From a virus (Duplodnaviria > Heunggongvirae > Uroviricota > Caudoviricetes), in the IMG/VR virus record IMGVR_UViG_2548877010_000005, positions 1-5,326 of that record: DNA of 5,326 bases; one strand, given 5' to 3'. Made by a program: the position numbers. Positions 1-3,000 of this stretch are shown one piece after another; within the stretch, counting starts at the first letter, position 1; every line of letters begins with the position of its first letter.

Positions 1-3000
1 TTACACATCATTAGTACCTTCCTTATTTTTTGACTGGGACAAATTTGGGACCGATGGGTTCAGGATCGAGTCTATTTGCCGTGCGTGTTCGGTAAGGTGA
101 TTAGGTGCAAGGTGAGCATATCGACGAACCATTTCGATAGACTCCCAGCCTCCCATTTCCTGTAACACTGACAACGGGACTCCGGCTTGAACCAGCCAAC
201 TTGCCCAGGTGTGTCTCAAGTCGTGAAATCTGAAATCATCAATACCAGCCCGTCTCAGCGCCGCTTTCCAGGCTGTGTTTGCGTCATACCGCATCTTCCT
301 TACTGTTGGCGCTTTCGTTCCGTCTGGTTTGGTACAGCTTTCCTTGTACACAAATACCCAACGGTGATGATTACCGATTTGTTTTTTCAATACGCGACAT
401 GCAGTATCATTCAGCGCAACGCCAATTGCGCGGTTTGATTTACTCTCTTCCGGGTTTATCCATGCCACCCGGCGCTGCATATCTATTTGTTGCCATTCAA
501 GGTTGATGATGTTCGAGCGTCTTAAGCCTGTTGCCAGTGCAAATTCAACAACAGACTTTAATGGCTCCGGACATTCATCAATCAGCCTTTGTGCTTCATG
601 GGGCTCCAGCCAGCGGATCCGTTTATTCTTTGGTTGAGGCACTTTAATAATTGGTGCCTTATCGAGCATTTTCCATTCACGCTCTGCGGCTCTTAGCAGG
701 GCCTTTATAAATGAAAGATGCGTAGCCTTCGTTGCAACGGACGCTGGTTTTGGCGTGTATTCTGGAACAGGTTTCCCTTTTTTTCTGCATGCTTCTGCCC
801 TGAGTTTCCAGTTTTCCTCATGACGCCGGTTCGTCATTTTCTGCATTGCTGAATAAATTTTTGATTCAGTAATGTCTCTTAGTTGCATTCCTGCGAAATG
901 TTGAAGCCAGAATCCGATCTGCTTTCCATTGAGCCTGTTTCTCTGCGCGACGTTCGCGGCGGCGTGTTTGTGCATCCATCTGGATTCTCCTGTTAGTTAG
1001 CTTTGGTTGTGTGTGGGAGTCGTAGTCCTGAACGAAAACACCCCGCAATGGCACATTGGCTGCTAATCCGGATTCGCACTTCCGGCCAATGCTTCGTTTC
1101 GTATCACACACACCAAAGCCTTCTGCTTTGAATGCTGCCCTTCTTCAGGGCTTAATTTTTAAGAGCATCACCTTCATGGTGGTTAGTGCGTCCTGCTGAT
1201 GTGCTTGGTATCACCGCTAGTGGTATTTGTGTCAACATCGCCAGAGATAATTTATCACCGCAGATGGTTATCTGTATGTTTTTTATATAGATTTATTTTT
1301 TGCAGGGTTGTGTGGCTTGGGAGGTGATCGAGAGATCAGAATTGCGTTGTTTAGTGAGTTGCACCTATTAATTTTAAAATAAATACAATTGGTTATGAAC
1401 CGCCCCGGGTTTCCTGGAGAGTGTTTTATCTGTGAACTCAGGCTGCCAGATCATCGTTTCCGATGGAAGCATAATAAGCTTTTTCTGCTTCTGCCGGAGG
1501 AGTATGGCCCAGCCTTCCCAGCAATCGTCGATTGTTATACCAGTCCACCCACGTTAGTGTGGCCAGTTCCACTTCTGCACGGTTTTTCCAGCTCTTACGG
1601 TGTATTACCTCCGCTTTGTAAAGACCATTGATGCTCTCAGCCATCGCGTTGTCATACGAGTCGCCTGTACTCCCTGTTGATGCCAGTAATCCGGCTTCTT
1701 TTAGTCGCTCCGTATAGGCCAGTGACACATACTGAGAGCCTTTATCGCTGTGATGGATGGTGCCAGACGGACGACGGGCCCACAACGCCTGCTCCAGCGC
1801 ATCCAGCACGAATGTCGTTTCCATAGACGATGAGACCCGCCACCCCACGATGTATCCGGCAAACACATCAATGATAAACGCCACATAGACGAAGCCCTGC
1901 CATGTGCTGACGTAAGTAAAATCAGCCACCCACAGCTGGTCAGGTCGTTCTGCCACGAACTGACGGTTTACGCGGTCGCCTGCGGCAACGGCTTTCCGGC
2001 TGATGGTCGTACGGACCTTTTTACCCCGGAGAACACCGGCAAGTCCCATAACCGCCATGAGACGTGCCACTGTACATCTGGCCACCCTGATTCCTTCCCG
2101 TAACAACTGACGCCAGACTTTACGCACACCGTACACCTGATGATTTTCATCGTATACGCGCTGTATCTCTCTCTTCAGCCAGTCGTCGTGCTGCGCACGG
2201 GCACTGCGTTTATCCGGATGATGTCGCTGTTGCTGACAATGGTAATACGTTGACGGGGCAATATGCAGTTCGCTGCATACCGGTCCGACCCCGTACTGCT
2301 CACGCAGCTTATCCAGCAGTGGCATCATTTTTTCCAGAGGCGGTCGAACTCCGCCTTCGCAAAATAAGCGGAAGCCTGGCGAAGGATATCGTTACTGCGG
2401 CGCAGTTCACGATTTTCACGTTCCAGCTCTTTCAGACGCTGACGTTCAGCGCTGGTGAGCCCACCATCACCGCCCCCGGTATCCCGCTCATGCTGGCGAA
2501 CCCAGACACGCAGAGTCTCCGGCGTACAGCCAATCTTTGGGGCAATGGAACAAATTGCCGCCCACTGTGAGTCATATTCATCCTGACTTTCCAGAACCAT
2601 ACGAATCGCCCGCTGACGGACTTCGGGGGAAAAACGAGTATTTTTAGTCATCCTGTTTACCTCTTTCTCAGGGAGTTTAGTCTCCAGGATTTCCGGGGCG
2701 GTTCATACTGTATATATTATTAAGTATATTCTTTATGCGAATAAAAAAACTAATTGATCACGATGAGCTTCTGTCAACATTATCATATGACTCAGAAACA
2801 GGAATATTTAAATGGCTAAAAACAAATTCAGTAGTAAGAGTAAAAGGTAGTATTGCTGGAGGTGTTAGTGGTGGTTATATATGCATTAGTATAAATAATG
2901 TTTTGTATAAGGCGCATAGACTTGCTTGGTTCTATGTATACAAAAAATGGCCTCCTAAGTTTATTGATCATGTAAATGGGAACAGACTTGATAATAGGAT

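Follow-up and report, generated by a model that had tools for sequence, protein, structure and literature searches.

The IS629 copy and the two arms

The window, by which we mean the whole stretch of 5,326 nucleotides that was analysed, consists of prophage DNA on either side of a complete IS629 (IS1203 isoform; IS3 family, IS51 group), which occupies positions 1396-2705 on the minus strand. The element is 1310 bp long and identical at 1310/1310 positions to annotated copies; among our numbered reference loci, this identity was seen for the copies in L001, L002, L007, L016-L024 and L038. RefSeq calls such copies [quoted passage not shown] and the record of phage 2851 names its copy of the element “transposase for IS629.” The ends read TGAACCGCCCCGGG... 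and ...CCGGGGCGGTTCA, with termini of the type 5'-TG...CA-3', and the inverted-repeat arms, detected at 1394-1420 and 2681-2707 (the terminal repeats proper lying at about 1396-1420 and 2681-2705), are 89% complementary. Two genes are encoded, orfA with an HTH_Tnp_1 domain (2651..2325, minus strand) and orfB with HTH_21, rve and rve_3 domains (2328..1438, minus strand); both are uninterrupted and they overlap at CTGGAAAAAATGATG, with an A6 run, a layout that fits the -1 frameshift predicted for the IS3 family. The sequence-only reading had judged the IS to be intact, and these comparisons bear it out. In its length of 1310 bp, its TG...CA terminal inverted repeats and its pairing of orfA (HTH) with orfB (DDE/rve), the window copy shares the organization of IS629/IS1203.

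To the left of the element lies an integrase pseudogene without its N-terminus (1..921, minus strand; Phage_integrase domain, E = 2e-47), assigned to the prophage Sp1/CP-933H and labelled in RefSeq at the same coordinates as “site-specific integrase, incomplete, missing N-terminus”; in the reference genomes a tRNA-Thr gene (thrW) is found 14 bp to the left of it. Fused to the truncated integrase is the remnant of a lambda-type N gene, its first ~20 codons (922..979, minus strand), identified by alignment to lambda and by an ORF (866..1111) that matches Pfam N36; this fusion is an earlier, separate deletion joint. Beyond it are a lambda-like nutL boxB hairpin (1137-1151, GCCCTTCTTCAGGGC) and the OL/PL operator-promoter region, together spanning 1137..1270 on the minus strand. 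Positions 960-1395 align with lambda 35341-35773 at 91% identity, across the 5' end of N, nutL and OL1-OL3, and the alignment stops 52 bp short of the rexB stop codon, in agreement with the initial description of this flank as lambda-like up to the rexB-proximal region. In O157:H7 genomes the left arm is a small lambda-like remnant at tRNA-Thr, adjoining proA and called “prophage Sp1” in Sakai. The window itself starts 9 nt past the 52-nt att repeat of thrW.

To the right of the element the DNA had been described as AT-rich and carrying an HNH gene, followed by the nin region, and this description was accurate. Positions 2706-3360 have a GC content of 33.7% and contain an HNH_3/AP2 endonuclease gene of the type found in Stx2c prophages (2735..3346, plus strand), which in the reference prophages is located directly downstream of a DnaB-type replication helicase gene. 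After the HNH gene comes a GC-rich hairpin with T-runs on both strands (3345..3372), which by a consensus scan looks like a bidirectional terminator. The nin region of an Stx2c-type prophage occupies 3593..5326 on the plus strand, with 0 mismatches to 7636, Z1834 and 644-PT8, and includes a DUF7301 gene (3593-3808), a phiTE_015 family gene (3810-4142), ninB (4139-4549), ninE (4546-4737) and the start of an ORF6N antirepressor gene (5003-5326), all on the plus strand, the last being cut by the end of the window. The window breaks off within a 115-nt repeat belonging to the ORF6N region. In the reference genomes the right arm belongs to an Stx2c prophage adjoining sbcB, where it is situated upstream of Q, three tRNAs and stx2c.

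Parental insertions at the two junctions

The three bases outside the IS are TTA on the left (1393-1395) and TAC on the right (2706-2708), the left flank ending in ...CAATTGGTTA and the right flank beginning with TACTGTATAT...; as the sequence-only reading had stated, there is no direct target duplication of 3-4 bp around the window copy. Taken by itself this mismatch proves nothing, unrelated trinucleotides being different in 63/64 cases. Nor is it surprising: matching duplications of 3-4 bp were reported at only 21/47 IS629 copies in four O157 genomes (Rump 2011, PMC3271280), so that copies without a duplication are common, and the missing duplication does not exclude membership of IS629 or of the IS3 family. 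The mismatch becomes informative only because each of its halves matches a documented insertion that has a complete duplication of its own.

For the left half this is the insertion in Sp1. Many O157:H7 genomes match positions 1-2706 of the window in their Sp1 at thrW, with a rounded identity of 100%, and the left arm shows 0 mismatches to 7636, 0 to strain 350 and 1 to strain 272. The Sp1 copy of strain 272 and of many other strains reads ...CAATTGGTTA-IS629-TTATGG..., the junction in L001 being GGTTA-IS-TTATGG; a second subtype of Sp1 (L016, L021) reads ...GGTTA-IS-TTATGTGTTTTT... and is collinear with the lambda sequence CAATTGG TTA TGTGTTTTGGGG, in which TTA is present once. TTA-IS-TTA was found in L001, L016, L017, L019-L021 and L024, and the TTA at 1393..1395 corresponds to the left half of this duplication. 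The left junction of the window is, base for base, the Sp1 insertion junction.

For the right half it is an insertion in the Stx2c prophage, with the replication helicase gene on one side of it and the HNH gene on the other. Positions 1393-5326 match the Stx2c prophages of 7636, Z1834, NCCP 13892 and NCCP 13894 at 100%, with 0 mismatches in the right arm to 7636 and 0 to Z1834. The copy in 7636 and Z1834 reads ...GGTTCTTAC-IS629-TACTGTATAT..., and the L002 junction is GTTCTTAC-IS-TACTGT; the empty site is preserved in eight Stx2c-type prophages without the IS, which read GGTTCTTAC TGTATAT with one TAC. TAC-IS-TAC is present in L002 and L007, a single TAC in the empty loci L006 and L008-L014, and the TAC at 2706..2708 corresponds to the right half of the duplication. 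The right junction of the window likewise matches, base for base, the Stx2c-prophage insertion junction (TAC-IS-TAC) of six genomes. A candidate hybrid promoter at this junction (TTCATA-17-TATATT, 2702-2730) was set aside: the scan gave no more hits than chance would, and the parent has this junction too.

Aligning the flanks to relatives that lack the IS, a comparison proposed along with the first description, therefore traced each flank to an insertion of its own, through the single TTA of lambda and the single TAC of the eight Stx2c-type prophages. Both parental insertions share with IS629/IS1203 the 3-bp duplication; the window copy differs in its TTA/TAC flanks, its ends appearing to descend from two separate insertions.

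The combination of the two arms

Whole-window BLAST searches were made against 5426 complete RefSeq E. coli genomes and 50,697 phage records. Not one of the 5426 genomes has a record that covers 80% of the window; the E. coli matches fall into two classes, those to 1-2706 (Sp1) and those to 1393-5326 (Stx2c prophage). The combination of integrase, IS and HNH gene is absent from these genomes and from the phage records, and exact junction patterns likewise failed to find it in IMG/VR, the GTDB representative genomes and the JGI metagenomes. Exact-protein look-ups with the HNH protein, the integrase fragment and NinB did not recover the arrangement either, NinB being too widespread to help.

The parental junctions, on the other hand, are readily found together. 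The exact right junction (IS-TAC-HNH) is present in 6/5426 complete genomes (7636, Z1834, 1613, NCCP 13892, NCCP 13894 and NCCP 13906), and these six also have the left junction that goes with it, helicase-TAC-IS; every genome with this left junction has the parental right side as well. All six of these closest genomes also carry the IS629 copy of Sp1, in opposite orientation to the Stx2c copy and 1.8-2.4 Mb away from it, and strain 7636 (CP038421) agrees with the window in both flanks without a mismatch. The two copies in those genomes differ only at IS positions 1295-1297, which read AAC in Sp1 and TTT in the Stx2c prophage; the window IS reads TTT, as it would if its right end came from the Stx2c copy. 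Because the copies differ nowhere else, a crossover between them could be placed only somewhere within IS positions 1-1294.

We regard it as almost certain that the window IS629 is a TTA/TAC hybrid of the Sp1 and Stx2c insertions, whether it was made in a cell or by an assembler. An insertion of IS629 into a pre-existing junction of Sp1 and HNH DNA, with the duplication lost or never made, could draw on the frequency of copies without a duplication (21/47 matching, PMC3271280), but it is hardly credible: the two flanks are adjacent in no genome or phage, and each has an exact source in a documented insertion of its own. The sequence-only reading had itself argued against a simple insertion and had named, as the finding that would overturn this, a homolog in which 1395 and 2706 are contiguous; a query of the two flanks joined without the IS found such an empty site in 0/5426 genomes, the phage records contained none either, and simple insertion was rejected.

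The same reading had offered adjacent deletion, or recombination between two IS copies, as the origin of the joint. Recombination is supported by the match of both parental junctions; deletion is not supported, the right flank coming from the sbcB prophage. An IS-mediated adjacent deletion would have the Sp1 IS629 remove the DNA up to the HNH gene, by intramolecular transposition or by breakage linked to the transposase or to the IS-excision enhancer (IEE), and events of this kind do occur at the same Sp1 IS in relatives, all without a duplication: in other strains that IS is bordered on its right by CAC-tail-fibre assembly (10 genomes), GTATGC-cII (ATCC 43889) or ATACTG near the bet genes (180-PT54). 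This is in line with published accounts of deletions caused by IS629 in O157; IEE-linked deletions beside IS629 are described as ranging from a few bp to >40 kb (Kusumoto 2011, as cited in PMC9943667), and the one-sided deletions at this Sp1 copy lack a duplication as the window does; the difference is that the new flank of the window is the existing IS junction of another prophage. Wherever a reference genome carries both Sp1 and the HNH region, 1.8-2.4 Mb separates them, and the HNH region is part of another prophage with the opposite orientation; the position of the joint is, to the nucleotide, that of an IS629 end already present there, with the TAC of the Stx2c insertion retained, and a loss of ~2 Mb would remove essential genes. 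With a right flank from the prophage at sbcB and not from DNA further along Sp1, adjacent deletion was rejected for the window copy, and we consider it very improbable.

This also changes what can be said of the lambda genes that seem to be missing. There is no cI, cro, cII, O or P gene within the window, and the joint had been taken for a second deletion boundary at which the genes from rexB to ren were lost. That interpretation is misleading, as the joint is a pre-existing IS end with the DNA of another prophage on its right. The cI-cro-cII-O-P genes of the Stx2c prophage lie on the other side of its own IS copy and need not have been lost. The Sp1 copy in the six genomes is the derived form TTA-IS-CAC-tail-fibre assembly, in which the cI-to-P' genes of Sp1 are already gone; the immunity and replication genes of Sp1 were thus removed in the lineage by a separate IS-adjacent event (TTA-IS-CAC). 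The absence of cI to P is not caused by the event that formed the hybrid and, whether the joint is real or an artefact, the “missing” lambda genes are not to be taken as lost at the IS629 joint.

Possible routes to the hybrid and their expected consequences

The hybrid was probably made by real recombination in a cell. One homologous exchange of the RecA type, located in the 1.3 kb of IS that the Sp1 and Stx2c-prophage copies share, would join the int-N'-PL arm of Sp1 to the HNH-nin-Q-stx2c arm of the Stx2c prophage. Recombination between IS629 copies is a well-known and ordinary process, of which the window is a new instance; rearrangements driven by IS629 have been documented in O157, and the Stx2c prophage has been described as a hot spot of large rearrangements (PMC8743559, PMC8046923, PMC3271280). 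Several points speak against an origin in the cell: the combination is absent from the collections searched, the simplest product would be an asymmetric inversion, and a mis-join across a repeat of ~20 copies gives the same sequence.

An assembly chimera, in which ordinary parental copies (TTA-IS-CAC or TTA-IS-TTA in Sp1, TAC-IS-TAC in the Stx2c prophage) had the wrong flanks joined across the 1.3-kb repeat, is the main rival explanation, though we think it the less likely one. The parental copies are identical to the window IS over at least positions 1-1294, which makes a real and a computational joint inseparable by sequence; the arrangement occurs in 0/5426 finished genomes, and the biological inversion would be strongly asymmetric. 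The two ends of the window, one in the ORF6N repeat and the other just after the att repeat, are compatible with a fragmentary assembly. Short-read assemblers, however, normally stop at IS629, as do contigs L014 and L025, which end at the IS edge; that the sequence crosses the whole IS suggests long reads or finishing, which would span 1.3 kb reliably. IS- and prophage-mediated rearrangements are, moreover, frequent in O157 (PMC8743559). Should the joint be an artefact, it would serve as a warning that, in draft genomes, an IS lacking a duplication may stem from a mis-join and is not necessarily the trace of a deletion.

If recombination in the cell is accepted, three topologies may be considered. 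The first is an inversion of ~2.4 Mb between the two inverted IS629 copies: since these are in opposite orientation, an exchange within the chromosome would invert the interval and not delete it. The record of 7636 starts at mnmG, adjoining oriC, and in this genome the copies lie on opposite arms, at distances from the origin of 2.01 Mb (Stx2c copy) and 1.06 Mb (Sp1 copy). We estimate that the inversion would leave replichores of ~3.7 and 1.8 Mb, near 67:33, if they were balanced before. Such an unbalanced inversion would be unusual, because the O157 rearrangements on record are for the most part symmetric about Ter and involve prophage homology of at least 5 kb (PMC8743559). The large rearrangements of O157:H7 (Iguchi 2006, as cited in PMC8046923; Fitzgerald 2021, PMC8743559) have in common with the proposed event that inverted repeats in prophage regions undergo homologous recombination and that the Stx2c prophage, a frequent partner, becomes bisected (PMC8743559); they differ from it in the repeat, here an IS of 1.3 kb, in the partner, here Sp1 at thrW, and in the strong asymmetry that the inversion would have.

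As a second route, the Stx2c phage genome, excised as a circle, could integrate into the Sp1 IS through IS homology. Hfr strains are formed in a comparable way, by integration of F into the chromosome through shared IS elements. In both cases a circle with one IS would recombine with a chromosomal copy and come to be flanked by two hybrid IS elements, which would give the joint of the window without an inversion; the difference is that the circle proposed here is an excised Stx2c phage genome. The third route would be a transposed duplication of the Stx2c phage, akin to those that insert into the Stx2c prophage (PMC8743559).

By any of the three routes the local sequence would be identical, and in none of them need anything be deleted. 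Each would also cut nin-Q-stx2c off from the cI, PR, O and P that belong to the prophage itself. A reciprocal exchange would further yield a second hybrid, expected to run from the helicase gene through ...GGTTCTTAC-IS629, with AAC at IS positions 1295-1297, into CACGGTATCG...tail-fibre assembly, or else into a right arm of Sp1 that begins with TTA.

If the joint is real, the Stx2c prophage has been split, the toxin and late genes being detached from the functions for immunity, replication and excision, which would affect both the inducibility of the toxin and the ability of the phage to spread. A real joint would also mean that in O157:H7 very large, unbalanced rearrangements can arise through a short IS as well as through long prophage homology. 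That a natural O157:H7 strain carries the strongly asymmetric inversion of ~2.4 Mb through the 1.3-kb IS629, with Q-stx2c and the late genes placed behind a dead Sp1 at thrW, seems to us doubtful; in such a strain the toxin genes would be locked into the chromosome and Stx2c production uncoupled from prophage induction, and the inversion could in principle flip back.

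The Sp1 copy of IS629 and its right-hand neighbours

Comparison of the reference loci showed that a single IS629 copy, that of the lambda-like remnant Sp1, has at least five different right-hand neighbours across strains, while its left side is unchanging across the same loci (the two TTA subtypes L001 and L016, together with the Sp1 loci L022, L038 and L004). These neighbours are the two TTA subtypes, a CAC junction with the tail-fibre assembly gene, a GTATGC-cII junction and an ATACTG junction near bet; the Sp1 element is a one-sided hot spot of IS-linked loss.

Ten genomes in which the Sp1 IS629 is followed by CAC and the tail-fibre assembly gene have lost the DNA from cI to P', and in these the right inverted repeat carries AAC rather than TTT at IS positions 1295-1297 (for example L004, 10094-11403, in strain 350, and L026 in strain 7636). 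With this substitution, the terminal 25 nt of the element become a perfect inverted copy of its left end. Recombination with a second, variant copy of the IS could have left this mark, as could an aberrant transposition event.

Possible excision and displacement of the element at the Sp1 site

IS629 is absent from the Sp1 of locus L023 (CP014314.1, reverse strand, ~11376-11400), where the site reads CAATTGG followed directly by CTGTTTTTCG. Relative to an occupied site from which the IS has been subtracted, TTATGG is missing, and the missing stretch falls between two TGG triplets. The site thus has the appearance of an imprecise excision sealed at a microhomology rather than of a virgin site, and such a closure resembles what is proposed for IEE.

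The position of the Sp1 element appears displaced in L018 (SS17, CP008805.1; reverse strand, near 11376), where it lies between CAATTGGCTGTT on the left and ATATGGCTGTT on the right. One end of this IS629 contains an N, and the copy may represent an independent insertion or a problem of assembly. An IS629 end with ~18 bp of flank was also matched in strain 155 and in many PT21/28 "Z" strains (matches H102 and H66-H97); in strain 155 this match coincides with the position of Sp1 and is on the opposite strand.

The Stx2c prophage and its HNH cassette

The target of IS629 is at the left edge of the HNH cassette. This AT-rich cassette (window 2706-3372; 33.7% GC) carries a gene for an endonuclease with HNH_3 and AP2 domains, is placed between the replication genes and the nin genes, and has its own hairpin resembling a bidirectional terminator; it looks like an insert of the homing-endonuclease type. 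Within the Stx2c prophage of strain 350 (L005, IS629 at 6531-7840), cro directly precedes the element, cII, O and the gene for the helicase have been lost, and the right flank begins 55 bp deeper in the HNH region (equivalent to window 2761). Neither flank of this copy forms a duplication; the copy is a further product of rearrangement of the same insertion.

At its other extreme, the window ends within a 115-nt direct repeat of 93% identity (window 5223-5326; 9832-9946 and 10399-10513 in L002, the Stx2c-prophage locus with TAC on both sides of the element). The repeat is part of two truncated ORF6N antirepressor pseudogenes, and amounts to a minor, local duplication within the nin region of prophages of this type.

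An earlier joint in Sp1

A distinct, earlier joint is found in window 905-1111, near 921/922, where an integrase without its N-terminus is joined to the remnant of a lambda-type N gene; this remnant consists of the initial ~20 codons and keeps the arginine-rich motif. All DNA between N and int is thus gone from Sp1. An ORF of 81 aa runs across the joint on the minus strand (866..1111), and the fusion structure is common to all O157 Sp1 copies examined.
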